From IMG/VR virus record IMGVR_UViG_3300009868_000002, positions 39,556-103,555 of that record: 64,000 nucleotides of DNA, one strand, 5' to 3'. Within the stretch, counting starts at the first letter, position 1; each line of letters begins with the position of its first letter. The position numbers were made by a program, and so were the translations under genes. The notes beneath the pieces were generated by a model. The model had not been told where the DNA came from. It saw only the letters and a program-made list of their open reading frames with translations, and did not search any database. Shown here piece after piece: positions 29,838 through 62,382 of this stretch. Source of the DNA: a virus (Duplodnaviria > Caudoviricetes).

Positions 29838-29858
29838 TGCAGCAAAGTTTGCTGCAAG

Positions 29859-31900: not shown

Positions 31901-32928
31901 AGGTATAGCCGTATAGATACATGCCAATCAGGTCGTGTTATATAAATATCGTTATCGAGAACAACTCGATATCTATAAGTTTCTAAGCTAGAATTCCAAG
32001 AGCCTCCTAATGGTACTGAAGAATTTCGTATTAACTTCATAGCCAGAGTCTTTGTGATGCAGTATGAAGTGGTTCAATGCGCTCTATATATCCCGTAGTA
32101 GCAGTAACAAAGCAGAAGCAGTCAACGTCATAGAAGTCAAAAGGCTCTGTCCAGTAGGTGCCGCCTAAAACACAATGTTTGATTCTCATAGTATTAGCCT
32201 TTGTGATATACGCCTTGAAAAGTAATTAGGAGAGCCCATTGATATTGAGACGGCATTAAAGTTTTGCATGCCTATCGTATAGTTATAGCCCATTATATGC
32301 CAAGCTTCATACAGTTTCATAGTATTATTCTTATGCCTCTAGCTGAAAATATAGCGCCAACATGTACCAAAGTTTCTACGTCGTAGCCAGATAGTCTAAT
32401 GCTGCTTAAGCAATAGCCTGCTTTCTGGTAGCATCCTTTGCTGTGATAAAATTCCTCTTTTCCTATCTTCATAGTATTAGTCTTACTGTAGTTTCCATAT
32501 CACTATAAAAGTGCATACCATAGTGTATTCTGAATCGGTGTGAGGGAGCATAGTATAAGATGCCTAGCCTGTATATTGATATTCCTATAGGATATTCTGT
32601 CATCAGGTTCATAGCCAGAGTCGTTGCGATACAGTATGAAATCTCACTATACGCTCCACATAACCCATAGTAGCAAGCACAAAGGCATGCTCATCAAAGT
32701 CATAGAAGTCAAATGATTCTGTCCAGTAGGTTCCTCCTAAAGCACAATGTTTGATTATCATAGTATTAGTCTTTGTGTTCTACCGCAAGAAAAGGCATCA
32801 CAGTAGTGCATTTTTTGTACTTCATACATCCGGTTTATTGCATCTTTACTGTTGATATAAAAGTATCCTGCTCTGAAAAAGTACCCCGCCTTTTCAAGTG
32901 TAGCGAAAGCTTGTCTTCCAATTCTCAT
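31897..32928 (-). CDS. RLIL mini-ORF array B: 7 coupled ORFs
   Basis: 32758-32928 (..TQRLIL), 32609-32761 (..SQRLWL), 32469-32612 (..TVRLIL), 32317-32472 (..GIRIIL), 32186-32320 (..SQRLIL), 32037-32189 (..SQRLWL), 31897-32040 (LGGSW..SIRLYL). Confidence 0.85.
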
Positions 32929-33335
32929 AGTATCCTGATTATTACTCCAGCATTTTCTTTATCCACCCTGTACCATTGCCCGTCTATCTCTAGTGGGATA
33001 GGTACCATCTCTGTGATGTTATCGTCAGGTATCCACTTGTGGAATACCATTGCATCCTGTGGGCATTGCGTCATATTGTTAAAGTCGAATAATCTCTTAC
33101 TATCTCGGATAAAGAAAAACCCTATTTTCAAGGGTTTTTCCTTACCCTTAATAGCACGCCTAAACTTGGGGGCTAATGCCTTCATCAGCTCCGCTGTATT
33201 CTTTCTCCATCGCTGTGTAAGCTTGTTTGCAACAAAGTGTCCTCCCGAAGTCAGCACACGGCTGTTCTTCGAAGAGGGCACGTTGCCGGGAATAAAAAAC
33301 TCACATTCTACTGTAGACTTCTTGGGCTGCTTCAT
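32925..33335 (-). CDS. RusA-like Holliday junction resolvase
   Basis: IPGNVPSSKN, RLFDFNNM..PQDAM..IPDDN. Confidence 0.75.
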   Translation of the reverse strand: MKQPKKSTVECEFFIPGNVPSSKNSRVLTSGGHFVANKLTQRWRKNTAELMKALAPKFRRAIKGKEKPLKIGFFFIRDSKRLFDFNNMTQCPQDAMVFHKWIPDDNITEMVPIPLEIDGQWYRVDKENAGVIIRIL

Positions 33336-40382: not shown

Positions 40383-41451
40383 ACTGTTTTACTTTATCAT
40401 AGACTCTAAGCATATTCTCTGTGTCGTTTGGCAGTGGCAGCTCTTTAATGTATCCAGTTTTTCCGTCAAAAAACAGCCCAATTTCTTTATTTACAGGGCC
40501 ATAGCGCTGCTTAACGATATTTATCGTCCTAAAGTAGGAGCTTAGCATACTTAGCTGATATCCATTTTCATCTGGGTAGACTTTATATCCATAGCGGCTA
40601 GGGTCATTAATGCCAAGGATATTCATATAGCGTCTGCCTACCTTTTTGTTATCACCCAATCCCTGTAATGAAACTCTGGTATAGTTTTCCTTCTTATGCT
40701 CTATGTCTTCCTTAGCGGCCATCTGTTGGTGTATTACTAAGCAGTTGTAGTTAAAGCGCTTGGTAACATAGCTTCGCAGGTAGCGCGTCATATTCTCTAT
40801 TGCTGAATCTAGCGTCACTTCTTTATCATCGGGCATTAATTCTCCTACGTGGTCTACGACAGTAATGATGAATTCTTCAGGATTGTGAGGGACATAAGCA
40901 TTCCAATGCTTTACATCGGTAGCGGGTTTGCCATTCATGAATATGTCGCCACGACTAAAGGCAAATTCACGAATGGTATCGTAGATACCAAAAGACTTAT
41001 ACGTTCTATCGTCGACGTTGATATAAGCCTTATACTGCTCAAACATGTCGTCGACACGGTGCTGCTCCAGAATAGTCAGGTACTCTTCGTCGATAGCTTC
41101 AGTAAAGCTTTCAAATTCCCTGATATTCAGGCGTACTGCTGCCAAGCGATAGGCTAGTGCAGAGTATAGCGTATAGTCGAATTGCTCCTCACTTTCTTCC
41201 AATGCAAAATACAAAATTTTCAGGTCTAAGTTATTCTCGATAGCAAAGTCTATAGCATTAATGACGTATAGTTGTTTTGCTATCGTCGTCTTCCCAACAC
41301 TTGAGTTGGAAGATATGCAGTCTAACATACCTTTGATGATGCCGGGAAAGTAGCTAGTAAGTCGTGGTGCGTTTCTGAAGGGAATACATCGCAGTTTCCC
41401 TGCCAGGAAAAGCTCTCTGTTGTGTTTTATTTTATCCAGCATTCTACTCAT
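40366..41451 (-). CDS. DnaB-like replicative helicase
   Basis: SNSSVGKT, FALEE, VVDHVG, IHQQ, KQRYG; likely start 41451 by ATGA coupling. Confidence 0.85.
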   Translation of the reverse strand: MSRMLDKIKHNRELFLAGKLRCIPFRNAPRLTSYFPGIIKGMLDCISSNSSVGKTTIAKQLYVINAIDFAIENNLDLKILYFALEESEEQFDYTLYSALAYRLAAVRLNIREFESFTEAIDEEYLTILEQHRVDDMFEQYKAYINVDDRTYKSFGIYDTIREFAFSRGDIFMNGKPATDVKHWNAYVPHNPEEFIITVVDHVGELMPDDKEVTLDSAIENMTRYLRSYVTKRFNYNCLVIHQQMAAKEDIEHKKENYTRVSLQGLGDNKKVGRRYMNILGINDPSRYGYKVYPDENGYQLSMLSSYFRTINIVKQRYGPVNKEIGLFFDGKTGYIKELPLPNDTENMLRVYDKVKQYDNTP

Positions 41452-42151
41452 AGGCATAGTCTGTATGATGTACTAAATTCTAACGAACTCGTATATAGTA
41501 TATACTTACACAGTGAAGTAGATTCAAGATACATTTGTGTATAGAAAAAGGTGCTGGATACCCGTCCCTGGAGTAGTAGTTTCATAGTATAAGCCGGTGT
41601 GAACCTCCTTCCATTGAAAGTATGCGGTTTGTATAGCTAATCAGAGGTGCTCTATCGATAGTCCGCGCTGAATGATACCATGACCAGGATAGCTGTGCGA
41701 AGCGATTTAGTTTCATAATATAAGTCGTATTGATGGTGCGTTACCGTGAAGAATTCTCCAGTAATAAGTAGGATGATGTCCTAGGAGATACCATTGGTGT
41801 TCTATTGATAGTTTATTTACATCTTCGCCATAGGTATACCACAAGGCAAGCTCGAAGTAAGGTGGTAGTTTCATAGTATCAGCCTTATTGATTTATTCTT
41901 ATCGTCTAGGGAATACTCTATAGCTATAGCTCCACCTATAAGCTGAAGTGTTAGTATTTCATCCATGCTGTCAAAGTAGCAGTATGATGTCCAGCGGAAT
42001 AATAGTTTCATAGTATTAGCCTCGGCGTAATCGGCGTAATGTTAAATCCAAAGTCGTAGTTCTCGTAGAATAATCCTATGATGTCGTCTTCACATACATC
42101 TGTTTCGCTGTAGTTAAACGCACTAGAAACAAAGGCGCAAAATAGTTTCAT
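41448..42151 (-). CDS. RLIL mini-ORF array C: 5 coupled ORFs
   Basis: 42008-42151 (..TPRLIL), 41871-42011 (..SIRLIL), 41713-41874 (..SIRLIL), 41582-41716 (..SHRLIL), 41448-41585 (..SYRLCL); all start MKL. Confidence 0.85.
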
Positions 42152-42669
42152 ATCATTCCTGATTTATTCTCTTCAAAGGTAGCATACATAGCGGGTGCTA
42201 TGCCCGTTAGAAAGTCTGCAAGTTTCTTAGCGTATGTCGTGTTAGCGTAGTAGCTTACCGTTACCGTTGCCAGCCTCTCGATGTCCAGATTCTTAATCTT
42301 CTGTTGCAGGGCAGCAAAAGCATCTTCATCACCAGAGCCTACAATGCTATAGTCTCTGGGATTATTAGGATGGCCATTATGCCGTATGCCTCTGGTTGCC
42401 AGCAGCTTCATGAAGTCTGCGTAGTTTCCCTGGTTTTCGATGATAAACAGAGGATAGCGTAACGCTATCGTATCTGTTTCGGCGTCATGAAAGCACAGGT
42501 TGATGCGATACTTATATTCATTGTCGGGACTGATGATGCCAGAGTTTATTACCAGCCAGTCCAGTGTGCCGTATTGCTGCATTTCGGCAGCGGCGCAGAA
42601 CAGCAGGGCTTCCTCGACGGGGAGCCCTGACTGCTCTATAGTTTTCAGTAAGGTAGGGTTTACCTTCAT
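42148..42669 (-). CDS. Hypothetical protein
   Basis: 173-aa ORF with ATGA overlaps at both ends. Confidence 0.7.
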   Translation of the reverse strand: MKVNPTLLKTIEQSGLPVEEALLFCAAAEMQQYGTLDWLVINSGIISPDNEYKYRINLCFHDAETDTIALRYPLFIIENQGNYADFMKLLATRGIRHNGHPNNPRDYSIVGSGDEDAFAALQQKIKNLDIERLATVTVSYYANTTYAKKLADFLTGIAPAMYATFEENKSGMI

Positions 42670-42916
42670 AAGATAAGCCTTGTCGAGCTATCCAGAAATA
42701 TTATTGCAATAGATATTTTTGAAAACATGCTATCAAATTCGATGAGGGAAGCATAGCTTTCCCCTACTTCGTATCGTTCGTATAGTCTCATAGGTATAAT
42801 CTTGTAGATGTGTCAACAAATGCACTGTGCCAATAGTTAAGTACATACGAGAAGTATGGTGCAAAGGCGTCAGTATAGTGGTAAAATCCTACTTCTGGGC
42901 GTTGTGATAGTTTCAT
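42666..42916 (-). CDS. RLIL mini-ORF array D: 2 coupled ORFs
   Basis: 42788-42916 (MKLSQRPEVG..STRLYL), 42666-42791 (MRLYERYEVG..STRLIL). Confidence 0.82.
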
Positions 42917-44175
42917 GGCAGGTAGGTACAGAATTCATCGTCCAGTTCTCCTAAGAAATCATGCAAGTAGTCTTCATCCCTGGTGTCGGATAGTACATAG
43001 CAATAAATCTCTGGCTCCTCGCCACGCAGGCTCCTGCCTAGTTTCTGTATCGTCATCAGCTTACTTCCATCCAGCTGCACCATGAAGATTTTCTCCAGGT
43101 TAGCCAGATTCATTCCTTCATTCAGCATAGAGACAGCGTACAGCCTATTCACTTCCCCTTCGTTAAACTGCCGCACCAAGTCGGTGTTGTCCTTCTTGCT
43201 TTTGCTGTGTACGCTAACGTGTGTTCCTGCCATAGCGTCACACTGCTCGATAGAGGAAGCAAATACCAGGCAGCGGGAAGTTTCCTGACGTAGTACCGAT
43301 GCTACATGGGCGGCTTTGCAGTCCCCCATGAAGCGCTTACGCTGGCTGCCTAGCTGGCGCCACCGATTCTTTACCCATTCATTCTGCCTGTACCATTCTG
43401 CAACAAAGAATTTACGTGAAGAGTCATTAGCGATGCCTTCAGATTCTGTAAACATCTTGGCGTTATCAGTGAAGTACTTTGACTTCCACCATTCCATCTC
43501 GTCGGTAAGCAGTTGGTAGTATTGCGCCTGTGTGCAGCTGATGTGGTACTGTACTTTGCGGGCCTGATAGCGCAGGCTGTTCCAGTAGCTGGTAAAGTTG
43601 GTATGCTCCACAGGATTTCCCTTGGCACCCTTGATGTACGTCAAGTCGGTAGTAGTAGTATCCAGCTTCAGTCGCTTGACAAAGATACGGGGCTGTGGCA
43701 GGATACCTTTACGGATAGCTTCGGCGAGCCCTACTCTGAACATCTTCAAGTCAGGAGACAGCTGCTTGAGGAGCAGCATCTTCTCGGTAGGCACGGTAGC
43801 AGAAAGATACAGGCGCCTGTTGGTAGCAATCTGCCTGGCGTATTTGATGCTACGCTGTGTTAGGTGGTGACACTCGTCAAAAATGACGATATCATAGTTG
43901 TTTCCTGCTTCCTTGTCGATACCGGCATAGGTACAGAATACTACATCCGTGCTGAAGCCATGCTTTTCCAAGTCAGCAATCCAGTTCTGCTTATGTACCA
44001 GCTGATGGTGTACGATAAGTGTAACCTTATCCTGCATACATAGCCCTGCAGCGCGTGCTTTTCCTACCCCGGTAGCCCATAGCAACAGCAAGTCGTTGTG
44101 CTGCTGGCTTTGGTTGTAGGCTTCTTCCTGTAGGACAGCCTTGCGGCGATTAGCTTCTTCTTGATTGAATATCAT
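42913..44175 (-). CDS. Superfamily 2 DExH helicase
   Basis: ATGVGKA, DECH, LSAT, EGMN, QKLGRSLR. Confidence 0.88.
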   Translation of the reverse strand: MIFNQEEANRRKAVLQEEAYNQSQQHNDLLLLWATGVGKARAAGLCMQDKVTLIVHHQLVHKQNWIADLEKHGFSTDVVFCTYAGIDKEAGNNYDIVIFDECHHLTQRSIKYARQIATNRRLYLSATVPTEKMLLLKQLSPDLKMFRVGLAEAIRKGILPQPRIFVKRLKLDTTTTDLTYIKGAKGNPVEHTNFTSYWNSLRYQARKVQYHISCTQAQYYQLLTDEMEWWKSKYFTDNAKMFTESEGIANDSSRKFFVAEWYRQNEWVKNRWRQLGSQRKRFMGDCKAAHVASVLRQETSRCLVFASSIEQCDAMAGTHVSVHSKSKKDNTDLVRQFNEGEVNRLYAVSMLNEGMNLANLEKIFMVQLDGSKLMTIQKLGRSLRGEEPEIYCYVLSDTRDEDYLHDFLGELDDEFCTYLP

Positions 44176-45128
44176 AGTAGTAATCTATTAGTACGAAAGA
44201 AAAGTTGAGCATTAGCATCGCAGCTAAACAAGAAAGGGCATCTGTAGTTGTCGTATTCCCATACGTGACTATAGTAGTCTGCGCCACGACTAAGCAAGCG
44301 AATTATCATAGTAGTAATCTGCTTGAGTTATAGAGAAAGCCGTGGTAGTAAATTACTGGTATAAAGAAAGGTATTTCTATGTATGCTGCTCTCTCTAAGT
44401 AATACTCTCCTCCGTATTTATACATAGTGATTTTCATAGTATTAGTCTTATTGAGTCTTCAGGTATCCTCATAGTATCAAACCAGATTATTCCCCATGTC
44501 CATACGCATTGTTTCACTTGATGTATTTCAGTTCCATAGCAGAATCCTACATCATCCATTTTATATAGTATCATAGTATTAGTCTTAGTGAGGCGTTATC
44601 TCTATTGTAAAGTGGCATAGTACTAAAGTCTAGGAAGTCAAGCTCTGAAGTATACCACATAGAAACGATAGTGCGGTAGCTACAATAGCCATTTCGGTTA
44701 GGGCGATATATAGAGAGTATCATAGTAGTATTCTTGTACCCATATATCTACGAGATGTTGTATTAGGTGGCCAGCCATAAAGTATGTTTCGATAGCCAAA
44801 ATGAAATATGCTTTCAATGCTATGTCCGCAAACATCTGTAAGTATCCTCATAGTACTATTCTTGTAGTCCAAAACTTGCTTTCTTTGTCTATGCTCCAAT
44901 TATGATGCCTTGCCATAGGTGCCATCTGGGGGCCGTTTTCAATGATAAATATGCGAGTATTCTCGATACACTGGCCAAGGCGTGTGATTTTATATAGTAT
45001 CATAGCATTAGTCTTTGTCCGATGAATCTCTTGTGTATTATGTTTGGGTTCCAGTCGTATAGACTATAGCGGTGGAAATATACTATACTACCAAAGCAGT
45101 GTCCAAAAGCATCTATCGATAAGTTCAT
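44172..45128 (-). CDS. RLIL mini-ORF array E: 7 coupled ORFs
   Basis: 45000-45128 (..GQRLML), 44848-45003 (..TTRIVL), 44720-44851 (..GTRILL), 44571-44723 (..SLRLIL), 44434-44574 (..SIRLIL), 44306-44437 (..SSRLLL), 44172-44309 (..TNRLLL). Confidence 0.85.
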
Positions 45129-45132
45129 AGCG

Positions 45133-47040
45133 TTACTTTTCCCAGCAGTCGGCTATCTTGCAATCTACGACTACTGGTATTGATTTAATGATAATTTCTC
45201 CCGACTCTATCATGATTTGCTGCAGTTTCTCTTTCCATTGTCCTGCAAGCTCTTCTTTACATTCCGAGGCGACTTCGTCATGGATAGGTAAGATTGGTTT
45301 GATGTTGTACTGCAAGCTATTCTCTATTAAGTAGTAGTAGATTTTACCTAGTATACATTTCATCCAGTCTGCGTTGGTGCCTTGCGGTACATGATTGCGC
45401 CCACTACGTTCTGCTTCTCCTCTCTCTGAGAAGTCTGTCCATGGCAGCCATCTTACTCTTCGATATGGAGGTAAAGTAATTGCCTTCTTTGCGTTGACAG
45501 CATAATTACTTATCCTGTCCAGAAAGTTTCTTAATGTAGGTACACTGCTAAGAAAGTTTTCTATGATTTCAGCAGCCTGCTGCTGGCTAATCTCCAGTTT
45601 GCTTGCCAGCTTCTTTGGACCCATGCCGTAGGAAATTCCAAAATTCAGTGTTTTTTGGACTCCTCTATAGCTTTCACCACCATAGGGAGACTTCTTCTTT
45701 ACGTCTTCTATTGGAATGTTGAAGGTACGGGCACACAACTCCCCGTGTAAGTCTTTACCTTCTCTGAAGGCAGACAGCCATACTTCATCCTGGCTAGCCT
45801 CCGCTAGTATCCTTAATTCTGCTCCAGAGATATCACCACCTACTATTTTCCAGCCTTCTTCAGGGATAAAGCAAGACCGTATTTGCTTGCCTATCTCTGT
45901 GCGGCTTGGTATCTGTAAGAGGTTAGGCTTAGTAAAATCCTTTTTCTTCTTTCCTGTCTCGTCTTTCTTTGATTTACTTCCGGCACTAATCCTTCCCGAC
46001 TTGAGGTTTTGCCAGAAGCTGGTGTGTATCCTTCCTGTTATAGGATTGATTGCTTTAGGTAACGGTAAAGCGAAGCCAGAGTACAACTTCAGTGTTTTTA
46101 TATACTCCTGCATCAAGGGTATAATAGGATGTTCCTTCTTAAACCTGTTGAGAGACTGCTCTGAAGTATCTTGTATTAGTGGATTAATTCGCTGTAACAG
46201 CTGTAGTTTCTGCTGTGGGCTAGCCCAATTTATTCCTGTATTCATAGGAGCAAACATGTTAGTCTGGCGTTTTCCAATGCCATCGAAAAGAGGATACTGC
46301 ACTATAACTTCATCAAGCCTATGTTCTAGCTTGATAAGCTCTTCTGCTAAGGCTGCTGTAATAGTACTCCACTTCTCGGTGTGCAGCTTAACGCCATTGT
46401 ACTCCATAAGTCCCAAGCATAGACATGCCCTGTTTTCTATGCCTAGCACGGTGAGCTCATCCTGTGTATCATCACTAGCCATACCCATCTGCTGTAAGGC
46501 ATCTACCTGGTGATACATGATACTGGGTAGACATTCTACATCCTGGGCGGCGTACTTAATCACCCTCTCTGTAAGCCCTTCCCTATGGATGACGCCACGA
46601 ATAGTTTTATCCAATTCCATATTGGCGTACTTCTTCGCCATCGTTGCCAGCGTATAGCTGCCTTCAGGCATATCTTTACCGGCATGGATGAGGCATTCTG
46701 CTACCATGACGTCGTAGATATTACGCAGATAGTATCCTTCCTGAAAGAAGAATTTCATGTCGAACTTGGCGTTCTGCAGTATTTTAGTAGTAGCAGGACT
46801 GGACATTTCAGTGAGGATGCTATCCTTTTCAGCTCTGTCAAGGCTAAACCAGTCTATGACGTACTGTACGTTATTATCGCCTATTTGCAGAGACAGGATT
46901 TGATTCTTTCCATTCCATTCTCCTGTAGTTTCTGTATCTACGCCATAGCAGTCGGTGATTTGCATATAGTATAGAACATCCTGTACTGAAGCAGTTTCAA
47001 AGGGTAGGGAATGCTGCTTGTTGCTGACGAACCTTATCAT
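45133..47040 (-). CDS. polA: Family A DNA polymerase with 3'-5' exonuclease
   Basis: VDTET, NAKFD, YAAQD exonuclease motifs; DISGAELR, KTLNFGISYG, IHDE polymerase motifs. Confidence 0.93.
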   Translation of the reverse strand: MIRFVSNKQHSLPFETASVQDVLYYMQITDCYGVDTETTGEWNGKNQILSLQIGDNNVQYVIDWFSLDRAEKDSILTEMSSPATTKILQNAKFDMKFFFQEGYYLRNIYDVMVAECLIHAGKDMPEGSYTLATMAKKYANMELDKTIRGVIHREGLTERVIKYAAQDVECLPSIMYHQVDALQQMGMASDDTQDELTVLGIENRACLCLGLMEYNGVKLHTEKWSTITAALAEELIKLEHRLDEVIVQYPLFDGIGKRQTNMFAPMNTGINWASPQQKLQLLQRINPLIQDTSEQSLNRFKKEHPIIPLMQEYIKTLKLYSGFALPLPKAINPITGRIHTSFWQNLKSGRISAGSKSKKDETGKKKKDFTKPNLLQIPSRTEIGKQIRSCFIPEEGWKIVGGDISGAELRILAEASQDEVWLSAFREGKDLHGELCARTFNIPIEDVKKKSPYGGESYRGVQKTLNFGISYGMGPKKLASKLEISQQQAAEIIENFLSSVPTLRNFLDRISNYAVNAKKAITLPPYRRVRWLPWTDFSERGEAERSGRNHVPQGTNADWMKCILGKIYYYLIENSLQYNIKPILPIHDEVASECKEELAGQWKEKLQQIMIESGEIIIKSIPVVVDCKIADCWEK

Positions 47041-48055
47041 AATATTAGCCTTGACGATGTATCTGGAAATTCAAATTCTGCTGAGTTATTCCATTGCTGT
47101 ATTATGTACGATACTTTGCTATCGGGAGTTGCTGAAAAGTCTAAATTGAGTAAGTGACAGTTTCTTCCTATTGCATTAATGAAGTATAGTTTCATAGTAA
47201 TAGCCTTGAGGATTCGATAGATATATCAGTTTCAGATTGCCAATCAAGCGAAACAAAGTATCCATATAGCCTGTACGAGCAGTATTTGTTATGTGCTATA
47301 CCATATAGCAGTTTCATAGTATAAGTCTTGTTGAGGTGTCCTCGCATCTAAAACTAGTAGTAAGCTCATACCAAGTATCTACACAAAACGTAGGATATCG
47401 CTCATAGAAGCAGCTTCCTAAAGCGCATATGATGAATAGTTTCATAGTATTAGCCTTATACTTCTTGAGCGAAAGATTGATTGTGTTGATGGATATACGA
47501 CAACCCTGACACACATTTGCGTGGAGTCATGTACATAGTTATATCCATGTCTGATGCAGGTGTAGATTCTCATAGTATAAGTCTTATAGTTTCGCTGTGG
47601 TCATCTATTGTCATAGGAAATACGCCAAAGTATCCATGCAGCTTATATTTATAGAGAGTACAGCTGTGTTCGACGGCAAGTATAAGTTTCATAGTATAAG
47701 TCTTGAGCATCTAGGAAAGAGAGAGAATGAAAGTGGTGCTGAAATAGCCATCAGGGGATTGTACCAAGGTTTGCTGCCTGCACCCAGCCCTATAAATGTA
47801 CCAGATAGTTTCATAGTATAAGTCTTGAGGATTCGGCAGATACATCAGCTTCAGATTGCCAATCGAGTGCAACGAAGTATCCATAAAGTCTGTGCCTGGT
47901 ATTCCAGGTATGTGCTACACCGTATATTAGTTTCATAGTATTAGTCTTGCTGATTTACCTTTAGCTTGAACTGCGCAAGATAGGGTTAGCTGTCGAAGCT
48001 GTGCTAGATAGCCACATCCATATAACCTCCAAAACATAGTTGTGTAGATTTTCAT
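47037..48055 (-). CDS. RLIL mini-ORF array F: 8 coupled ORFs
   Basis: 47933-48055, 47811-47936, 47689-47814, 47570-47692, 47442-47573, 47314-47445, 47192-47317, 47037-47195; seven end RLIL and one RLLL; the last stop overlaps the polA ATG. Confidence 0.88.
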
Positions 48056-48251
48056 AGTAGCAAATTTAAAGTAGGCAGCGAACCCCTCGCGCTCGCTGCC
48101 CTTCCCCATCAATCAGACAAACAAACGGATAGAAATAGCTAGTACCGGCGGGGAGATGCCTAGCCCTCCAATAATTCCTGACCTGTCAAGTACCCTACTT
48201 AGAAAGTGGTAGTAGTATGCAGTATTATGTCGAAGTCTCATTGCTTTAGGT

Positions 48252-48596: not shown

Positions 48597-48611
48597 TTCT
48601 TTACAAATTTG

Positions 48612-50074: not shown

Positions 50075-50125
50075 AAGAAAACAAATTTAAGAAGTTAAAA
50101 AATGTAAAACAATAAAACAAGGCAC

Positions 50126-52451: not shown

Positions 52452-53008
52452 TTGATGATGTATGCTGTTCTATTGAAAAGGATTCTGTCTGCTCCAAAGA
52501 ATTCGTCTACCGCTTTCTTGGCACCTGGGCAACAAGGACTGCCATAGTCATCGAATACAATGATACCTCCCTCTACCAGCTTTGGATACAAGAGGTCCAG
52601 ACACTGCTGGTAGGACTGGTAGTTATCGACATCCAGATGGATGAAACGAAATGTTTCATCTTCGACGTACTTACCAGTTTGGGTTGGAAAGATGCCCTTA
52701 TGCACAGATACGTTAGGAAATACTGCAAACATGTCTTTAATATGCTCGTAGCTGGCATCTTTAAAGCTGCCTACTTTCCACTCCTTATCCACTCCTTCTG
52801 TGTAGTTAGGCATACCCTCGAAGGTATCAAATAGGTAGAGCCTATCAGTAGTGTGCTGCGCCAGCAGCAGGGCAGAGCCTCCCATGTAGACACCGACTTC
52901 TATTACAGCACCTGACAGGTTATCAGTAGTGTGCAGCAGCTCTACCAGCTTGTTAAGCTTGGCTTGCTCAATGAGGGATTGGCCTTCAGTGATTCCGAAC
53001 TGATTCAT
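52448..53008 (-). CDS. TylF/MycF-family O-methyltransferase
   Basis: IEVGVYMGGS, FDTFEGMP, IHLDVD.Y, GGIIVFDDY. Confidence 0.85.
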   Translation of the reverse strand: MNQFGITEGQSLIEQAKLNKLVELLHTTDNLSGAVIEVGVYMGGSALLLAQHTTDRLYLFDTFEGMPNYTEGVDKEWKVGSFKDASYEHIKDMFAVFPNVSVHKGIFPTQTGKYVEDETFRFIHLDVDNYQSYQQCLDLLYPKLVEGGIIVFDDYGSPCCPGAKKAVDEFFGADRILFNRTAYIIK

Positions 53009-53631
53009 ACTGTGAATGGTTTAAAGGCTGGCTGGATGCTCAAATCTAAGTACTTCAGCGTAATATCAAGGTTATCGTCAGGCAGTGCTGCCAGTAGTTT
53101 TAATCCACTGGCTGCTACCTCTGGGATAAGGTACATCCTATAGCCTACTTCGGTGAGTGTATCAATAAGGTAATCTATCTCGTTACGTCCACTGAATCGC
53201 ATTTTTCTTGCCCACTGATACAATTCCTCGCTATCGGTAAGAATTGCTCCTCCTGTGGCAAGCTTGAGGTGCTTACGGGCGTTAAATGACACACATTGAA
53301 TACGTCCTGGTACGTACATCCCCTTACGGAATGTCAGGGCGCTATCCCAAACTCTGGTACCTCCCAGATTGTACTCCCCTGTTAGATACTCCGATGAAGG
53401 AAGGAAGTGCACACGTAAAGAGTTGTGTATAATCTCACACGGTACACTGGGATAGGTATGAGAGGGAATAGATACAACGTATCCAATCGGTATTTCTTCC
53501 TGCTTTACGCACCACTTTAGTGCTAGGAAGATGGCGTTGCTGCAGCACTGTAAAGTCACTACATAGGGTGCCCCTGTGTATCTGGAAAGCTGCAGCTCAA
53601 ATTCGTTGTTAATATCGTATACGTTTCTCAT
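53005..53631 (-). CDS. DegT/DnrJ/EryC1/StrS-family PLP aminotransferase (short form)
   Basis: FE..L..Y.G, WDSA, SFNARKHL..GGAILT. Confidence 0.8.
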   Translation of the reverse strand: MRNVYDINNEFELQLSRYTGAPYVVTLQCCSNAIFLALKWCVKQEEIPIGYVVSIPSHTYPSVPCEIIHNSLRVHFLPSSEYLTGEYNLGGTRVWDSALTFRKGMYVPGRIQCVSFNARKHLKLATGGAILTDSEELYQWARKMRFSGRNEIDYLIDTLTEVGYRMYLIPEVAASGLKLLAALPDDNLDITLKYLDLSIQPAFKPFTV

Positions 53632-54202
53632 TAGTAGAGTAGTCTTGTAGATAAAGAAGAAAACCTGGAGGTTTTCGTAAGTCTATAATATAGAATTCCT
53701 TCTTTCGATCTTGTTAAAAAATCATGCGAGGAGTTACGATAGCACCATATTCCAAAACATGAAGGTCCTTGTAGTTTCATAGTACGAATCTTAGTGAGGT
53801 ATCAAATCCAAACATTTCGGCATGCTGTGGAATATTATACAGCCAAATAAGAGTTTTTGTACTCATCAATCCCCAGCAATCTATATCATCGTTAAAAGAG
53901 AGCCTCATAGTACAAGTCTTATCGATGTGTCGTGTAAGAATGATACTGCATACATCTGCACATTAGTTAGCTGCCAATTAGCTAAGCCCCAGCAGTCTAT
54001 GCTACATGCCTTTTTATAGTAGAAATTTATCTTCATAGCTAAAGTATTTGCCGTATTACAATGTTAAGCGTATAGAGCGATTGTCAGCCCATTGAGATGG
54101 AAGAAGTATTCCTCCTTTGTTGTCTCTAATCCATCGCACATACAGCTCCAGAGCATGCGCAAAAGTCACTTCGCCAAAGTTTGGCAGCAATCGTAGCTTC
54201 AT
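53631..54202 (-). CDS. RLIL mini-ORF array G: 4 ORFs
   Basis: 54056-54202 (..SIRLTL), 53905-54036 (..SIRLVL), 53777-53908 (..SLRFVL), 53631-53780 (..STRLLY). Confidence 0.82.
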
Positions 54203-54996
54203 CCTATTGTAGGTTTGTCATTAACGTCAAAATAGTAGCTATCTCCCTGTAGTATTGCTCTTCCATGTTCAGCGTATCTGCCTAAGTATTTCCCCGCCAT
54301 CTTTGCCTTCTCTTCTTGATACAGTGTACCACCAGTATCGATGTGGTCGATATTGATAGTAGGCAAAAAGGCATTGCGGAATCCTGCAGCATGGCTGCGC
54401 GTGCAGTACAAACTGTCTTCAAAGCCATAGACGTCAAATTGGTAGAAGCCGCCAATTCTGTCAATAAGCCTTCTGTTATACAGCACACATGTTCCCATGA
54501 TGTGCTTGGCGAATTCGACAAAGTACCAGGGCTCTCCAGCTTTATGTGGTACCATTACCAGCTGACTGCGGAAGTTGGCGTCAGGATGGCTAGGGTTCTC
54601 CCAGCAGTCCTTACGCTTACATCCTAAAATTCCTATCTCCGGCATCTTCTCCATTGCAAACTCCAGCATCTCTATCCAGCCAGGGGTGTTGACGATGACG
54701 TCGTTGTCAATCTTCAGCAGATGCTGCTCAGGCTCCAGTCGTTTAATGCCTTCGTTGAGTCCACCAGCAGTACCCAGGTTTTCTTCCAGCCTTACCAGTG
54801 TAACGTGACTCCACTGTTTTGTCCATTGTTGCAGCAGTTGTGCTGTTTCAGGAAAGCTGGCATTATCAACAATAACCATAGGTTGTCCTGCATCAGCTTC
54901 CCTTTCCAGTCCTTTTAAGGTAGCCTTGGTGTATTTCAGCCTATCGTTTTCTGCTGTATCGTACACACACATACAGAGTAGTACTTTCTTACTCAT
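54199..54996 (-). CDS. Glycosyltransferase family 2
   Basis: IVDNAS, ENLGTAGGLN, KIDND, YGFED. Confidence 0.85.
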   Translation of the reverse strand: MSKKVLLCMCVYDTAENDRLKYTKATLKGLEREADAGQPMVIVDNASFPETAQLLQQWTKQWSHVTLVRLEENLGTAGGLNEGIKRLEPEQHLLKIDNDVIVNTPGWIEMLEFAMEKMPEIGILGCKRKDCWENPSHPDANFRSQLVMVPHKAGEPWYFVEFAKHIMGTCVLYNRRLIDRIGGFYQFDVYGFEDSLYCTRSHAAGFRNAFLPTINIDHIDTGGTLYQEEKAKMAGKYLGRYAEHGRAILQGDSYYFDVNDKPTIG

Positions 54997-55984: not shown

Positions 55985-56125
55985 TTAGTAAATGAGGCGA
56001 AAGTTGAGATCGCTGCCTTGATTTCGTGTTGGATAGATGAAGTGGTATGCAGAGCAGCAGCCCGGTATAATACTACCCCAGCCACCGCCGTAGAGTATTC
56101 GGTTGTCGTTCCAGTGTAGTTTCAT
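55985..56125 (-). CDS. 46-aa diverged FGE C-terminal (VR-like) peptide
   Basis: MKLHWNDNRILYGGGWGSIIPGCCSAYHFIYPTRNQGSDLNFRLIY; ungapped 17/46 identity to 56128..56268. Confidence 0.8.
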   Translation of the reverse strand: MKLHWNDNRILYGGGWGSIIPGCCSAYHFIYPTRNQGSDLNFRLIY

Positions 56126-56127
56126 TG

Positions 56128-56268
56128 CTAATAGATTAGCCGGAAACCGACGGTGACGTAGCGGAACGACGGGTCGAAGTCGTCGAGGTAGGCGGCGCGG
56201 CAGTCCCAGGCGCCAGTGAGCCAGCTGCCGCCGCGCAGCATACGATAATCCTTAATATGTAGTCTCAT
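56128..56268 (-). CDS. 46-aa separately encoded C-terminal segment of the FGE-sulfatase/CLec domain; DGR variable-region-like
   Basis: MRLHIKDYRMLRGGSWLTGAWDCRAAYLDDFDPSFRYVTVGFRLIY; ATGA overlap with the FGE gene stop; 71% GC core. Confidence 0.88.
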   Translation of the reverse strand: MRLHIKDYRMLRGGSWLTGAWDCRAAYLDDFDPSFRYVTVGFRLIY

Positions 56269-57140
56269 TCCTGCGGGAGTACGTTGAAGATGTTTTCAGC
56301 GCTAAAGTCCAGGTACTTAATCTTCGGCCAGTTGGCTTTCCAGATTTCTTCTGTCATTACGGGCGGGAATTCGGGGAGACACATCTCCCATACGTTGCCA
56401 TACAAGTCGTATACGTCGTAGCTGTTGGGCTTGAGCTCACCAACGGGATGTGTCCTTCCATTGGAATTCTCCGAAAACCACGCTACCTCTTTCAGGTTGT
56501 TGCTACCAGGATACTTATACGTTTCGTTTGGACGATTTACTACTGCCAGCCACTGGTCACTGATGGGGATACGCTGATGGCATTTGTATTGCACCAAGTC
56601 GATTTTCTCCTGTACTGACAGCTTGCGATTAAGAGCAACTTCTTGCTCCTTCACCAACTGTCCGCCAGTCTTCTCGCTGTTGGTGCCAGGGTAGTACCAC
56701 AACCAGATGTCCCCAGAGATACGGGCAAGGATGTAGGTACGTCCTAATCCCCGGTACTCGTTAATCCAGTTGCAGTATTCGATGGCGTCGAGGATACTGA
56801 TATTCACTGCAGGACGAGTACCACGCCCCCAATTCTGGTCAGCGGGAAAGCGGCGATTGGTATGCCAGCAATAGGCATCGTACATCTCAAATGTAAGGGT
56901 ATGCTTACCAATGAAGAGGTCGCCTAAATCGGTAACTTTGGTTTTCCATGTTACTTCATCAGTCTGTTTCTCTTCCAAGAATTTTTGGCGCCGTGACTTT
57001 GACATGGAATTAAAGTCAGCAAGACGCTGTTTATACTCCACGCAGGCTACAAGCCCAGGAGTTGCAAGAGACTTTACTTCACCGAGTTGGGTAAAGTCAT
57101 AATCCTTGCCTTGCTTAATGGTGAAAATAGCGTTTGTCAT
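56265..57140 (-). CDS. FGE-sulfatase (SUMF1/CLec-fold) protein lacking its RGGSW...GFR C-terminal segment
   Basis: RPAVNISILDAIEYCNW, RIP, YPGSN.L.EVAWF, THPVGELKPN.Y.VYDLYGNVWEMC, then ends with no RGGSW/GFR. Confidence 0.88.
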   Translation of the reverse strand: MTNAIFTIKQGKDYDFTQLGEVKSLATPGLVACVEYKQRLADFNSMSKSRRQKFLEEKQTDEVTWKTKVTDLGDLFIGKHTLTFEMYDAYCWHTNRRFPADQNWGRGTRPAVNISILDAIEYCNWINEYRGLGRTYILARISGDIWLWYYPGTNSEKTGGQLVKEQEVALNRKLSVQEKIDLVQYKCHQRIPISDQWLAVVNRPNETYKYPGSNNLKEVAWFSENSNGRTHPVGELKPNSYDVYDLYGNVWEMCLPEFPPVMTEEIWKANWPKIKYLDFSAENIFNVLPQE

Positions 57141-57485: not shown

Positions 57486-57763
57486 TTAAAATGTTATTCT
57501 TATACTCCTTGATTTTCCAAATGTCCAAGTTTGTATTATCAGGTACATGCCAACATCGGAGATGTTAAAGCTGCCTCCATGCTGGTTAATGGGTTTGTTT
57601 CCTGTAAGAGTATATATTTTCATCATCAAAGTATTAGTCTGAATCCTCTGTCACGATTAAGTATAGCGTACAGTATCACTTTGGGGGCCATCCAATGTTC
57701 TTCTGTAAATGCTCCACCCATTCGGTAGAGATGGATATCTTCCGGTAGGCTGTATAGTAACAT
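57486..57763 (-). CDS. RLIL mini-ORF array H: 2 ORFs
   Basis: 57626-57763 (..YRMGGAF..RGFRLIL), 57486-57626 (..HGGSF..SIRITF); TGATG overlap. Confidence 0.8.
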
Positions 57764-58143: not shown

Positions 58144-58341
58144 ACCAAACAAACTGTAATCTCATGAAAAATTATCTTTCTGCAAAGAATGGCGTAACTA
58201 TCCATTCCCCTTCTGTCTTATGCAGTCGCCCCTGCCCATTACAGATACCGATAGGACAAGTGAAAATCTTTCCTTCTTTAGGAAGGAAGATAGTCACCAT
58301 CTTCAGGCAGTGGGGGCATTTGATACGTATTAGCAGCCCGC

Positions 58342-58527
58342 TCATTCTATTCCATAGTTTGCAATGTACAGATTAATAGCAATCTTGGCTTGCCATAGCC
58401 AGCGATACTCACCGCCAATTCCTACGATGTAGTAGTAACCGTGGACATGTTCCACGGTAAAGCCACGATACGTGGTGAATGTAGAAGTTTCAGTTTTTGC
58501 CATTGCCTTGTTGTTGTAAGAGTGCAT
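58342..58527 (-). CDS. Hypothetical protein
   Basis: Small ORF in the operon; start uncertain. Confidence 0.5.
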   Translation of the reverse strand: MHSYNNKAMAKTETSTFTTYRGFTVEHVHGYYYIVGIGGEYRWLWQAKIAINLYIANYGIE

Positions 58528-58855
58528 TGATAATCTTCTGACTTGATTCCTCGTCGAATTTCAGCCCTCCCTGGTAGGGAGCCATACCTATCTCGATAGC
58601 ACGCTTTTGCCCTACAGCTGCTTCGTATACAGCAGCGGAAAATGTGAAAACATTTCCTTGGCTGCCCTCTTTAAGAATGAAGCCTATCCAGCTGGCGTCA
58701 AAATATTCAGCGCCAGAGTTCCAGCCTTCGTTGTAGCTGTCCATTTGGACAGCATTGATTTCTGTTGCAGTGTAGTAGTGCTTGCTAAGGATGATACTGG
58801 TAGCACCGATAGCGATGCCCAGCATGATAAACAGAAAGTAGGAAAAAGCTTTCAT
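58490..58855 (-). CDS. Membrane-anchored hypothetical protein
   Basis: N-terminal TM helix. Confidence 0.55.
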   Translation of the reverse strand: MKAFSYFLFIMLGIAIGATSIILSKHYYTATEINAVQMDSYNEGWNSGAEYFDASWIGFILKEGSQGNVFTFSAAVYEAAVGQKRAIEIGMAPYQGGLKFDEESSQKIINALLQQQGNGKN

Positions 58856-58958
58856 TGAACTTGTAGTTGATAGTGGAAAAAACTACGCCTGCCTTTGCAT
58901 CAATGATTCGGGCTGTGCGTAGAAAACATTAGGCATGAAAAATTACTCTTAATCTTTA

Positions 58959-59201
58959 TTATCTTTTCTTGTCAGACTCTTGTCTGAGCCAAAGCTCGAA
59001 TAGCTCTCCGATAGAGTAAAGTACTTCCAAATCTCCGAATTTTCCTGTCCAGTAATGTTCATTTTCGTGCATCTGTAAGGAAAATACGGGCTCAGGCTGG
59101 CCATATTCAGGCGTCTTAGGAGTGTTGAGCCATTTGATAAACTCAAACATATCCTTAGTGTTGACTGTATCAGGTGCTGGATGTTTCGTTACAAGTATCA
59201 T
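58959..59201 (-). CDS. Hypothetical protein
   Basis: 80-aa ORF. Confidence 0.5.
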   Translation of the reverse strand: MILVTKHPAPDTVNTKDMFEFIKWLNTPKTPEYGQPEPVFSLQMHENEHYWTGKFGDLEVLYSIGELFELWLRQESDKKR

Positions 59202-59227
59202 TTGTCGTCAATTTTAAGGTTTTTAAT

Positions 59228-59340
59228 TGGTGCCTCGCTGTGGATTTGAACATACCTTTCGGTCACAGTGCCATACAAGCGATAACGTAATGTATGGTCC
59301 CAGGCGATATCATGGGGCTAGCATCCCATCTATCCGAGGC
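59228..59340 (-). ncRNA. Atypical tRNA-like RNA ending in ACCA
   Basis: 5' GCCTCG pairs with 3' CGAGGC-ACCA; GTTCAAATC T-loop 12 nt before the discriminator; two internal hairpins; no canonical 7-nt anticodon loop. Confidence 0.55.
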
Positions 59341-59377
59341 ATAAAATAGAGGCAGTCTGGCTGCCTCGTCGGGGGTG

Positions 59378-59818
59378 CTAGCCCCCAAAAGCCCTGCGCA
59401 ACATTGCCCAAAAGCCCTGCTTCACTGCCGGAGCATTGATGAAAGGCTGTGCATCGCTGGGAAGCTGATGCTTCCTACGGTACTTCCTTTTGGGATGATT
59501 GCGTTGGTACTGCTCGTCGCCGCGCTTAATGGCGGCCTTCTTCCTGTCTTTGTACGTGTCTGCCATTTCTTCGATATTTAATGGTTGTAATCCTGCGAGC
59601 TGCTCTTCATTAAGGGGAATGCTGCTGTAGAGTACTATAGCAGTATCTCCCTTTATATGCAACTCCATGCTCAAAGTTACGCCTTGTGCCTGTAATGTGC
59701 CAGTCCCTGCCAGTACAATTATCAGGATAGCGCCAGCTTTACGGGCACTGCGTATTAGCAGAATACCTGTAATGGCCAAAGCCACTGATGCGATGCCGAT
59801 TGCTGTAAGTAGTATCAT
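59378..59818 (-). CDS. Membrane protein
   Basis: Two N-terminal hydrophobic segments. Confidence 0.55.
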   Translation of the reverse strand: MILLTAIGIASVALAITGILLIRSARKAGAILIIVLAGTGTLQAQGVTLSMELHIKGDTAIVLYSSIPLNEEQLAGLQPLNIEEMADTYKDRKKAAIKRGDEQYQRNHPKRKYRRKHQLPSDAQPFINAPAVKQGFWAMLRRAFGG

Positions 59819-59828
59819 GTCTTAGATT

Positions 59829-60104
59829 TTAGTCGTATCTATTGAAAACCAAAGCTAACCACCATATCGGCCACGCCAAGACTATATGGTAATCCAGTAG
59901 CCATACCCATTGGTATCCTTTCTCAGGAGTCCAACGTGACTTTACATGACTCCATACAATGGAGCGTATTCCTACTCCGTAAGATAGATATAGAAATACC
60001 CATCCCAGGAATGTAGGAGGGCCTAGAAGGCTTTTGTATATGAAATACATTAGCCACGCGGCTCCTGCCGTTACGACTAGTATTATTACGTGTGTATATT
60101 TCAT
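59829..60104 (-). CDS. Small multi-TM membrane protein
   Basis: Three hydrophobic segments. Confidence 0.55.
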   Translation of the reverse strand: MKYTHVIILVVTAGAAWLMYFIYKSLLGPPTFLGWVFLYLSYGVGIRSIVWSHVKSRWTPEKGYQWVWLLDYHIVLAWPIWWLALVFNRYD

Positions 60105-60115
60105 AATAGTTGTTT

Positions 60116-60472
60116 TTAGAGCTCCACATACTCACCCTGCAGCAATCTCTTGTCTACTGCTGTAAGGTGGTAGTTGTAGTCAACAATGAAATAGTCCTCA
60201 TTCAACTGGACGATGTACATTTTACTCCAGTCTTCAGGCTCTGGTACTACATACAGCACATGAACGTCCTGTATGTCTTTTTCGCTGGTGGCATGCATAC
60301 GATTGCCCCAAAGATTGGCAACAGTAGATTCAGCCGTAATGATATCCGAAGCATTTACGCGACGGACTTCCAGGCTGCCATTAAGCTTGAAAAATGCAAG
60401 GTAGCTATTCATAAGTTTGATTTTAAGAAGATACCCTCCACTGCCCCCTTCTGCAAAATCCTTTGCAGCCAC
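60116..60472 (-). CDS. Hypothetical protein (start uncertain)
   Basis: ORF in the small-gene region. Confidence 0.5.
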   Translation of the reverse strand: MAAKDFAEGGSGGYLLKIKLMNSYLAFFKLNGSLEVRRVNASDIITAESTVANLWGNRMHATSEKDIQDVHVLYVVPEPEDWSKMYIVQLNEDYFIVDYNYHLTAVDKRLLQGEYVEL

Positions 60473-60601
60473 GGGACAGATACTAACAGCACACTGTATG
60501 AAAAGGTGTTTACCTCACCTAGGGCGGCAGTGTACTGTAGCGGAGCAGTAAAGAGTATCATGTTTTTCACCCAAAAATCTCCGTGGCACCCTTTTATTCG
60601 G

Positions 60602-60934
60602 TTAAGCTTCCTTGAACTTCTTAAAGATGTGGAATACAAGGTTCTGTATCTCTGGAGTTTTAGCCTTTAAGGCGTACTCAATTCCTCCCTCGAAGAAACC
60701 TTCGAGTGTCTGTCCTTGGCTTTCTGCCACTTCCTGTAAGGCTTTCCTCAACTCTGTGCTTAGCTCTTCCAGCTGCTTATTCTTAGTTACTTGATACACC
60801 ATGTTCTGTTCGATATCAAACAGACTCATTGCCTTCAAGAAACCAGCATTGCTTTCTATGGATTTTGCCATTGCGGCGAACGGAATAGGCACAGCTGCCT
60901 CGTACATAATTGTTGCGATAAATAGCTGTTTCAT
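60602..60934 (-). CDS. Hypothetical protein
   Basis: 110-aa ORF with ATGA overlap. Confidence 0.6.
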   Translation of the reverse strand: MKQLFIATIMYEAAVPIPFAAMAKSIESNAGFLKAMSLFDIEQNMVYQVTKNKQLEELSTELRKALQEVAESQGQTLEGFFEGGIEYALKAKTPEIQNLVFHIFKKFKEA

Positions 60935-61191
60935 ACTTTGATTGTATTATGGTATTCTTCTATAGTCACTATAAGCTCACGAAACTTGTCTACAGCATCA
61001 AATGCACTTGTTGCAGCATAGAGAGCTTTATCTTCCAGCCGCACTTCGTATACACCTACGCCATTTACTCCCAAGGATATTCTTCCCTGCGGCGTTGTAG
61101 TGCTGGCGTATGCTGTAAAGGCTTCTTTTCTGAAGTGGTGTAGCCCCTGCACTGTGATGGAGTCCAGGAACTCTTGTGTAAACTTTTTCAT
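60931..61191 (-). CDS. Hypothetical protein
   Basis: 86-aa ORF. Confidence 0.6.
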   Translation of the reverse strand: MKKFTQEFLDSITVQGLHHFRKEAFTAYASTTTPQGRISLGVNGVGVYEVRLEDKALYAATSAFDAVDKFRELIVTIEEYHNTIKV

Positions 61192-61250
61192 GATTTCAGA
61201 TTTTGGTAAAAGGGGCCACCCGTAGGCAGCCCCCTTAAGCTTATGGGAAT

Positions 61251-61544
61251 TTACATCAGTTTCTCCAGCTGGCTGCGAAGTAGCTCACAGGCATGCTCAA
61301 TCATAGCCTGCTTGTCATATATCCTTAGTGAATACCCATCACTGGAATACTCTCCATCTGTACGTGCTGCATAGCAATGTAGCGAGGCTTCTTTTTGCCT
61401 GTCAGGATTGTAGTCTACTGCTATAAGCAGTGTCCTGCCTTCCGCATTAATGGGAAAAGATGTGACCTGAGCCATATCAGGAATGTAATTCTTGCGTTTT
61501 GCAAGGCGCAGAAGTTCTACGTCATCGTATTGATGCTGTATCAT
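61251..61544 (-). CDS. Hypothetical protein
   Basis: 97-aa ORF followed by a hairpin at 61208-61236. Confidence 0.6.
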   Translation of the reverse strand: MIQHQYDDVELLRLAKRKNYIPDMAQVTSFPINAEGRTLLIAVDYNPDRQKEASLHCYAARTDGEYSSDGYSLRIYDKQAMIEHACELLRSQLEKLM

Positions 61545-61569
61545 AATTAATGATTTTGGTTTCTCTTCC

Positions 61570-61945
61570 TGTAGATTGGGTAGGCAGGGTATTTAGTAAG
61601 CAGAAGGTCAGAGCAGACGGTAAGCCTCGCTGCAATCTAATGCACTGCCCTGTTTTAAGCCGTGCTTATAACTCACACGGCGCCTTCTACTTATTTGTCG
61701 CAGGCCCTACCCCTGCTTGTCTCACCCAGAGAATTGGCATCCATGCGATTTCTCCTCACGGAAAGGCTCGATGGATGGAAGAGCCCAGACCCTCTATACT
61801 ATACTATAGCCATGCATAGTTTATTGACGTATTCCTACGCCAGCTCTATGGCTTGCCCTTCCTAAAAAGGGATAGAGGTTATCTTAAAGTGTAGCCTCAA
61901 CTGCTTTGCAGCGTGAAGACTATTCCCCGGCGAGGCCGGGGCTTA
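61570..61945. ncRNA. Candidate structured ncRNA
   Basis: No sense-strand ORF >=60 aa; long-range pair 61577-61590/61709-61728; several local stems. Confidence 0.35.
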
Positions 61946-61949
61946 GGGG

Positions 61950-62183: not shown

Positions 62184-62382
62184 AATGATATGATTTTTGT
62201 GAAAAATTCAGTTCAACGCCAGCCGGACAAATGTGTTCCCGGCAAAAGTCACGGTATCGTCCTTCCTCATGCGCCGGTAAACAGCGCTGTACTTAGTATT
62301 TAGATGCGGCATAAGCGCATAAGGAACGCCTACACTAAAAGTTAGCCCCGGCCGTGGTTGCCGGGGCTTTTCTGTTACTGCT

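Follow-up and report, generated by a model that had tools for sequence, protein, structure and literature searches.

The window examined here comprises 64,000 nucleotides, the right-hand part of a virus record of 103,555 bases (IMG/VR, IMGVR_UViG_3300009868_000002, positions 39,556–103,555; Duplodnaviria, Caudoviricetes). Its − strand bears eight clusters of very short open reading frames (ORFs), and these are probably best explained as one mini-gene family of 45 members whose units meet in a dual-coded joint. One short sequence would thus be read in two ways, as the tail of one protein and as the signal that starts the next, in a phylum without Shine–Dalgarno sequences. Array F (47037–48055, − strand) consists of eight intact ORFs of 40–52 codons chained by ATGA stop/start overlaps; the last overlap opens the gene of DNA polymerase I (PolA).

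Array F and the probable mini-gene family

Motif TCATAGTATTAGTCTT (≤3 mismatches) was found at 33 sites in the window, 32 of them on one strand; 0.66 sites are expected by chance. Sites in array F: 47037, 47192, 47314, 47442, 47570, 47689, 47811 and 47933; site-to-site distances 155, 122, 128, 128, 119, 122 and 122 nt, all 3n+2. Each of the eight sites reads AGR-CTN-ATA-CTA-TGA on the − strand, and the stop is overlapped by the next ATG. This reading and these spacings had been given in an earlier note made from the letters of the DNA, and both are correct as measured; the 3n+2 rule follows from every unit being an open frame between two ATGAs and adds no evidence beyond the open frames themselves.

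Units of array F (all − strand; 40, 41, 41, 40, 43, 43, 41 and 52 codons in order): F1 (47933–48055), MKIY...ARLIL, first of the array, its stop overlapping the next ATG; F2 (47811–47936), MKLIYG...SSRLIL, a paralog of F7; F3 (47689–47814), ...CSRLIL; F4 (47570–47692), ...TIRLIL, a more distant paralog of F2 and F7; F5 (47442–47573), ...SIRLIL; F6 (47314–47445), ...STRLIL; F7 (47192–47317), ...SSRLLL; F8 (47037–47195), ...SSRLIL, with the TGA overlapping the ATG of the DNA polymerase gene.

A scan of ORFs of 30–66 codons for the ending R-[LIFMV]-x-[LY] gave 43 units on the − strand and none on the + strand; the exact RLIL-stop occurs 22 times and not once on these two strands, respectively. 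Two looser members were added, which brings the total to 45. Units are 38–60 codons long (median 46), the 43 stricter ones amount to 1985 codons and all 45 to about 6 kb, and the eight clusters are spread from 29.9 to 57.8 kb of the window. The common build is an M-[KR]-[LI] start, a fast-diverging interior and an [ST]-x-R-L-I-L end; 37 of the 43 units, and 8 of 8 in array F, end in an ATGA shared with the start of the next ORF.

Read through the joint, the protein sequence is [ST]-x-R-L-I-L followed by M-K-L. The Arg is shared by 43/43 units and followed by L, I or F in 43/43, after which come I/L/V/T and others, then L/Y; residue 3 of the unit is L or I in 43/43, spelled with eight codons, and the [ST] residue two before Arg (−17 to −15 from the next ATG) is spelled with nine. 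The information content of the joint is 3-periodic (codon position 2 > 1 > 3), with G at −10 and T at −7 invariant. Judged by these patterns, the joint is conserved as protein. The terminal unit of array A, cited in the earlier note as encoding IRLIL in different DNA, is indeed found at 29859–29873 as ATT CGG TTA ATT TTG TAA (I-R-L-I-L-stop).

Coding evidence

No in-frame stop was found in the 1598 codons of the unit interiors; the other five frames hold 77–129 each. The arrays are tiled by intact units, with no gaps and no decayed unit. Ratios of nonsynonymous to synonymous differences per site (pN/pS) in the two clear paralog pairs were 0.38 and 0.56 (combined pN 0.20, pS 0.44); the pair F2/F7 (m47936/m47317), with the ratio of 0.56, has 64% amino-acid and 76% nucleotide identity in the interior. 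Between units generally the interiors show a median identity of 22%; Cys, Tyr, Trp, His and Phe are over-represented in them and Lys, Gln and Glu under-represented, and a G-x(0-2)-aromatic motif at residues 5–22 is modestly enriched (25/39 units, 16.9 in shuffles; p = 0.006). Taken together, this is strong support for the view that selection keeps the frames open and that the protein is under some constraint.

The units are therefore treated as mini-genes, a status that, together with their translation, is likely on the sequence evidence. The earlier note had called them selected, translated genes rather than arrays of the CRISPR kind (clustered regularly interspaced short palindromic repeats). 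Selection and coding are borne out by the open frames, the pN/pS values and the 3-periodic joint; translation is likely.

A CRISPR-like or non-coding repeat was rejected on the frame statistics and for want of an Rfam match: the repeat has ~16 nt, the "spacers" have 103–139 nt, and every one of them is open in one frame, which does not agree with a CRISPR array and its non-coding repeats of 23–50 nt between spacers of almost equal length. Codon bias of the NNY type, as in diversity-generating retroelements (DGRs), was likewise rejected as the cause of the open frames (third-position pyrimidine 58% in units, 55% in long genes). Tandem Repeats Finder did not detect the array, because only the joints are alike.

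Nucleotide sequence of the joint and its internal control

The R-L-I-L residues are spelled with a narrow set of codons. Arg is AGR in 33 of 37 coupled joints (0.41 expected genome-wide; p = 1e-9), Ile is ATA in 20 of 21 (0.30 expected; p = 5e-10), and CTG, the commonest Leu codon, occurs once in 33 (0.38 expected). Position −12 from the next ATG is A in 33 of 43 units, though its codon spells 13 residues. Frequencies of A: −3, 72%; −6, 70%; −12, 77%; −11, 81%; −13, 28%; at the wobble positions −12, −9, −6 and −3 they lie between 70 and 77%. Conservation as protein with synonymous variation, as the earlier note had it, thus holds in part: the codon variants listed there are present, but the synonymous choice is strongly restricted.

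In four units, among them the one example of the earlier note, the stop is free of any overlapping start (first bases of the stop codons: 29861, 54058, 55987 and 56130). R-L-[IT]-[LY] is retained in these, spelled CGG/CGC, TTA/CTC, ATT/ATC/ACA and TTG/TAY, with TAA or TAG as the stop. AGR was found in 0/4 of them vs 33/37 of the coupled units (Fisher p = 7e-4), and pooled wobble A in 5/16 vs 113/148 (p = 4e-4). The uncoupled units hence separate the protein layer from the nucleotide layer inside one genome: the codon restriction is lifted where no start overlaps the stop, and therefore the RNA or DNA sequence of the joint is also selected or homogenised.

The joint as a probable start signal

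No Shine–Dalgarno motif precedes the 57 ordinary genes of the phage; before their starts A is found at −12 (79%), −11 (68%), −13 (56%) and −3 (47%). Initiation in Flavobacterium johnsoniae is known to increase with A-3, A-6, A-12 and A-13 (Baez et al. 2019, PMC6847099). The joint has its adenines at −12, −11, −9, −6, −5 and −3, and its predicted unpaired fraction is 0.53 vs 0.45 for the unit interiors (p = 0.002). Resemblance to the ordinary starts and, in part, to the F. johnsoniae determinants, together with the weak pairing, is the reason why the last four or five codons of a unit may be read as the initiation region of the next. A signal so placed, inside the last codons of the upstream gene, would shape the codon choice of that protein (AGR, ATA, CTA).

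On this explanation the joint (~16–20 nt) would supply the conserved C-terminal residues and the TGA stop in the upstream frame and, in a frame shifted by one base, the first two codons (the ATG and its successor) of the following unit; the wobble positions and the first positions of the Arg codons would provide the adenines at −12, −11, −6 and −3 that a Bacteroidota ribosome working without Shine–Dalgarno sequences prefers. The end of each unit would launch the next, either by termination–reinitiation or because ribosomes initiate anew on an open A-rich site; an essential gene, polA in the case of array F, would be launched by the last unit of an array. Translational coupling at the joints is a putative part of this explanation.

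Several points weigh against it. A-13, a published determinant, is not enriched at the joints (12/43). Adenine at −3, −6 and −9 is more frequent at the joints (70–72%) than before ordinary genes (33–47%), so that shared ancestry or gene conversion must contribute beside whatever the start signal does. Where long genes meet the first units of arrays, the ATGA coupling occurs without motif AGACTAATACT, so the motif is not needed for the overlap as such. The uncoupled units are also terminal or isolated, and their codons could reflect escape from homogenisation within the arrays instead of the lifting of a start-signal constraint. On the protein side, pN/pS was drawn from two pairs only, the AlphaFold model of a unit gave no confident fold (predicted local distance difference test, pLDDT, 52), and profile searches with the mini-proteins against 5.8 billion proteins and against 1.84 billion representatives returned this phage's own units only, with no homolog outside this genome.

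Some of these points would suit an account by homogenisation only, in which the joints are identical through recent duplication and gene conversion within arrays and play no part in starts: joint variants cluster by array (permutation p = 2e-4), A is commoner at −3, −6 and −9 than before ordinary genes, and the codon-divergent units are array ends or isolated. Against it, synonymous sites just beyond the core are randomised (the nine codons of the Ser/Thr residue), and interior pS is already 0.37–0.49 in the youngest pairs, from which it follows that the family is old; moreover, the conserved adenines fall where 57 unrelated genes also have theirs and where the determinants tested in F. johnsoniae lie (PMC6847099). 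As a sole cause homogenisation is improbable; the clustering of variants by array and the excess of A over ordinary starts indicate that it contributes alongside any start signal.

Many genes of the region 58300–63500 (− strand) show AAAATC, or a sequence close to it, at positions −14 to −9 from the ATG, which may be either an element of its own or the A-rich start signal in a strong form.

Growth of the arrays

In the pairs m32761/m32189 and m47936/m47317 a DNA similarity of ~75% has both its ends at the joints, with unrelated units on either side. Seven interior similarities exceed the 99.9th percentile of shuffles; in each of the five strongest both units belong to the same array (12% expected), and two cross-array pairs lie at the edge of the null distribution. 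Homology bounded by joints and confined, in its five strongest cases, to single arrays argues that whole units were duplicated locally and with unit precision within this genome. The arrays would have grown in this way, the joint being the homology that the units share; recombination there is likely as a further part of the preferred explanation. The suggestion of the earlier note that cassettes are gained, lost or shuffled at the ~16-nt junction is partly upheld within the genome by the ends of paralog homology; shuffling between arrays is not, all strong pairs being intra-array.

A structured joint of the type of promoter(early) stem-loop elements (PeSLs) or of attC was rejected, there being neither hairpin nor promoter at the joints: promoter-like sites were below the shuffle expectation, no terminator was found, and the joint is more unpaired than its surroundings.

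Surroundings of array F and the other clusters

PolA gene: 45133–47040 (− strand), 635 amino acids, beginning at the last ATGA joint of array F; the N-terminus at the joint ATG (MIRFV...) agrees with those of homologs (MIIFI..., MIYLI...). Upstream of the array, a terminator-like hairpin of 11 pairs (48073–48101, − strand) and a candidate −7 promoter element, TAAATTTG (48061–48068, − strand), were located; the latter matches the Bacteroidota TAnnTTTG and stands 5 nt before the first ATG. Array F may therefore open a transcription unit. Across the window the TAnnTTTG-type motif is not above the chance level. TAAATTTG or AAATTTG was seen at 48061–48068, at 50082–50089 and near 48610 (− strand), each time a few bases ahead of the gene that opens an apparent transcription unit (starts at 48055, 50074 and 48596, respectively); these are candidate −7 promoter elements of the Bacteroidota type. 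Beyond the hairpin, an extra mini-like ORF of 42 codons (48113–48241, − strand; MRL...SIRLFV, ending CGT TTG TTT GTC TGA) has no start over its stop.

Most clusters pass by ATGA into a long gene (polA, SF2 helicase, DnaB-like helicase, a gene for 343 amino acids, one for 173 amino acids and a DegT-like gene). Array A (29859–30878): 7 units, the last being IRLIL-TAA in divergent codons. Array B (31897–32928): 7 units, among them the pair m32761/m32189 and m32040, which resembles an FGE tip; passes into the 343-amino-acid gene. Array C (41448–42151): 5 units; passes into the DnaB-like helicase gene. Array D (42666–42916): 2 units between the SF2 helicase gene and the 173-amino-acid gene. Array E (44172–45128): 7 units; passes into the SF2 helicase gene. 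Array G (53631–54202): 4 units between a glycosyltransferase gene and a DegT-like gene. Two units (55985–56268; m56268 and m56125) lie directly downstream of a gene for an FGE-type scaffold, and two more (57486–57763; m57763, ...GFRLIL, and m57626, ...SIRITF) lie upstream of it. All are on the − strand.

The neighbours of array G are family-2 glycosyltransferase and DegT/aminotransferase-like genes (53005–54996, − strand), so that the arrays are not limited to replication genes. Upstream of array B a gene of 136 codons (32925–33335, − strand; no Pfam match) ends I-I-R-I-L, spelled ATA ATC AGG ATA CTA TGA, and its stop overlaps the ATG of the first unit; a long gene thus carries the tail of the joint. 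The gap from the last TAA of array A to the ATG of a CHAP-domain gene is filled by an inverted repeat, TTGCAGCAAACTTTGCTGCAA (29838–29858, − strand).

Genome context and relatives

The family-A DNA polymerase is ~26–28% identical to those of crAss001 and of uncultured crAss-like phages, and the window has three giant + strand ORFs. On these sequence features the phage is a distant crAss-like one, and its host is presumably a Bacteroidota bacterium. The record (103.5 kb), from an activated-sludge metagenome, is estimated to be 72% complete. The nearest complete relative (93.7 kb, PolA 52% identical) has no arrays and no FGE domain. Searches of IMG/VR, JGI metagenomes and GenBank phages with PolA, RNA polymerase and the scaffold never gave a PolA identity above 52%, and none of the loci retrieved through PolA, scaffold alignment or pattern scans had an array; closer PolA homologs (58–66% identity) are present in Logan and ENA assemblies. 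Exact and degenerate joint patterns scanned in IMG/VR and GTDB genomes gave single matches only, at the chance level, and an ESM Atlas search with the mini-proteins gave no match.

Relation to the lectin scaffold and possible functions

Truncated FGE-sulfatase/C-type-lectin-like scaffold: 56265–57140 (− strand), 291 amino acids, matching positions 76–194 of the 255 of PF03781 and devoid of the C-terminal tip. The unit m56268 (46 codons), which overlaps the stop of the scaffold gene, matches PF03781 positions 213–254 (E = 2e-4; 21.4 bits, below the cut-off of 23.3). Four homologs of the scaffold from Logan and ENA assemblies (P0125–P0128; 47–58% identity, 289–298 amino acids) end at the same point, so that the split of the lectin is conserved among relatives that are uncharacterised. 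The ends of full-length FGE proteins, GFR-[LIV]-x-x (...GFRLVLEE, ...GFRVVRTC), are much like R-L-I-L. A model built from 41 FGE tips scored m56268 with 55.9 bits, m56125 with 20.1 and m32040 with 8.8, each above 100/100 shuffles; m32040 (31897–32040, − strand; ...LGGSWNSS...) closes array B, and no other unit of a regular array can be recognised as a lectin tip. By this model the FGE variable tip is recognised in these three units only, and a cognate tip-less scaffold is present in the genome. The other 40 of the 43 units scored gave no signal with the FGE-tip model (mean shuffle rank 0.56), profile–profile comparison of 40 units with FGE tips by hhalign gave E 0.9, equal to the reversed control, and Pfam PF03781 matched 1/43 units. 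The AlphaFold model of the scaffold was poor (pLDDT 43). No match to reverse transcriptase (PF00078) was found in the 103.5-kb record, which is 72% complete; a DGR template repeat was not searched for.

These sequence resemblances make it plausible, with chances roughly even, that the family descends from the detached variable tip of the split FGE-type lectin of this phage, which is the best lead on function; that the units complement the scaffold functionally is less likely than descent and rather doubtful. The functional version would have the 45 mini-genes as a hard-wired library of interchangeable C-terminal binding tips for the truncated scaffold, with R-L-I-L as the last β-strand (the 'GFR-L-x-x' end of FGE proteins) that plugs each tip into the lectin body; the joint would be conserved because every tip must fit the same body. 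It is compatible with the dual-coded joint and is put forward tentatively, as a minority possibility. It draws on the complementary PF03781 matches of scaffold and m56268, the split kept in four homologs, the GFR-like ends, the three units that beat all shuffles, the enriched G-aromatic motif, unit lengths (median 46) equal to tip lengths, and the lack of both scaffold and arrays in the nearest relatives searched. The 40 units without FGE signal, the null result of hhalign with the single PF03781 match, and the position of most arrays 8–27 kb from the scaffold, among replication genes, all count against it.

The same fast divergence of the interiors (median identity 22%) and the location of the arrays in the non-structural, − strand part of the genome would also suit small independent effectors for anti-defence or host takeover, unrelated to the lectin, their shared ends being a family signature. 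Yutin et al. (2021, PMC7886860) describe blocks of short, lineage-restricted genes in crAss-like phages and suspect them of anti-defence roles; anti-CRISPR proteins could not be predicted by them in such blocks. The units had no match in Pfam or ESM Atlas, the PADLOC and PHROGs libraries not having been searched, and 45 members with fixed ends and a hypervariable middle resemble a single scaffold with variable loops more closely than a set of separate effectors; this explanation is unlikely. Lastly, the frames might be open solely for ribosome cover of the mRNA ahead of essential genes (polarity or dosage), the peptides being functionless. Most arrays do pass by ATGA into polA, helicases or the DnaB-like gene, and no unit is broken. 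Yet both pairs that allow the calculation have a pN/pS clearly below 1, units with no gene coupled downstream keep the C-terminal motif in other codons, the G-aromatic motif of the interiors is enriched, and polA of close relatives stands without any array, so that functionless spacers are very improbable.

If the units are indeed lectin tips, the arrays would be a new viral way to encode binding diversity. Were the units in fact a tip library, entire tips could be duplicated, lost and expressed one after another by means of the dual-coded ATGA joint, and the phage, in whose record no reverse transcriptase was found, would have a germline-encoded alternative to DGR hypermutation.

Comparison with known systems

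Already known are ATGA coupling (PMC6728339), the short-gene blocks of crAss-like phages (PMC7886860) and the repeat-mediated shuffling of small genes by PeSLs (PMC2839356). New are the coding joint that probably doubles as a start signal without a Shine–Dalgarno sequence, the internal control that separates its two layers, and the possible origin from a lectin tip. The arrays offer 45 natural test cases for the Kozak-like signal of Bacteroidota and for termination–reinitiation, and add detail to the unexplained short-gene blocks of crAss-like phages.

Overlapping gene pairs (ATGA/TGATG) coupled by termination–reinitiation are well known (Huber et al. 2019, PMC6728339), and here too co-directional ORFs share a 4-nt ATGA, as do the ordinary genes of the phage; the arrays differ in having up to 8 overlaps in series between paralogs, a conserved stretch of 12 nt before each, and a host phylum without Shine–Dalgarno sequences. 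With the Kozak-like signal of Bacteroidota (PMC6847099) the joint agrees in part, in the preference for A at −3, −6 and −12 and in a region predicted to be weakly structured; here, however, the signal would lie inside the last codons of the upstream gene, and A-11 is enriched, not A-13. PeSLs are short repeats between small non-essential genes of T4-type phages that serve as recombination points for gain and loss (Arbiol et al. 2010, PMC2839356); a short conserved repeat between small genes, here a probable recombination point, is the likeness, but PeSLs are non-coding and consist of a promoter and a stem-loop terminator, whereas the present joint is coding, with no hairpin and no promoter of the sigma-70 type. 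Compared with the variable tips of FGE-type DGR proteins, the units have a similar size (~45 residues), an invariant Arg four from the end, a hydrophobic tail and some Gly-Gly-Ser-Trp-like motifs; 40 of 43 units are without detectable similarity, the record has no reverse transcriptase match, and the tips are free-standing genes. The short-gene blocks of crAss-like phages likewise hold many short genes without homologs outside the lineage, but in the part of that account used here (PMC7886860) there is no mention of joints shared between units, of chaining by ATGA, of a C-terminal motif held in common or of any tie to FGE lectins, features by which the present arrays stand apart.

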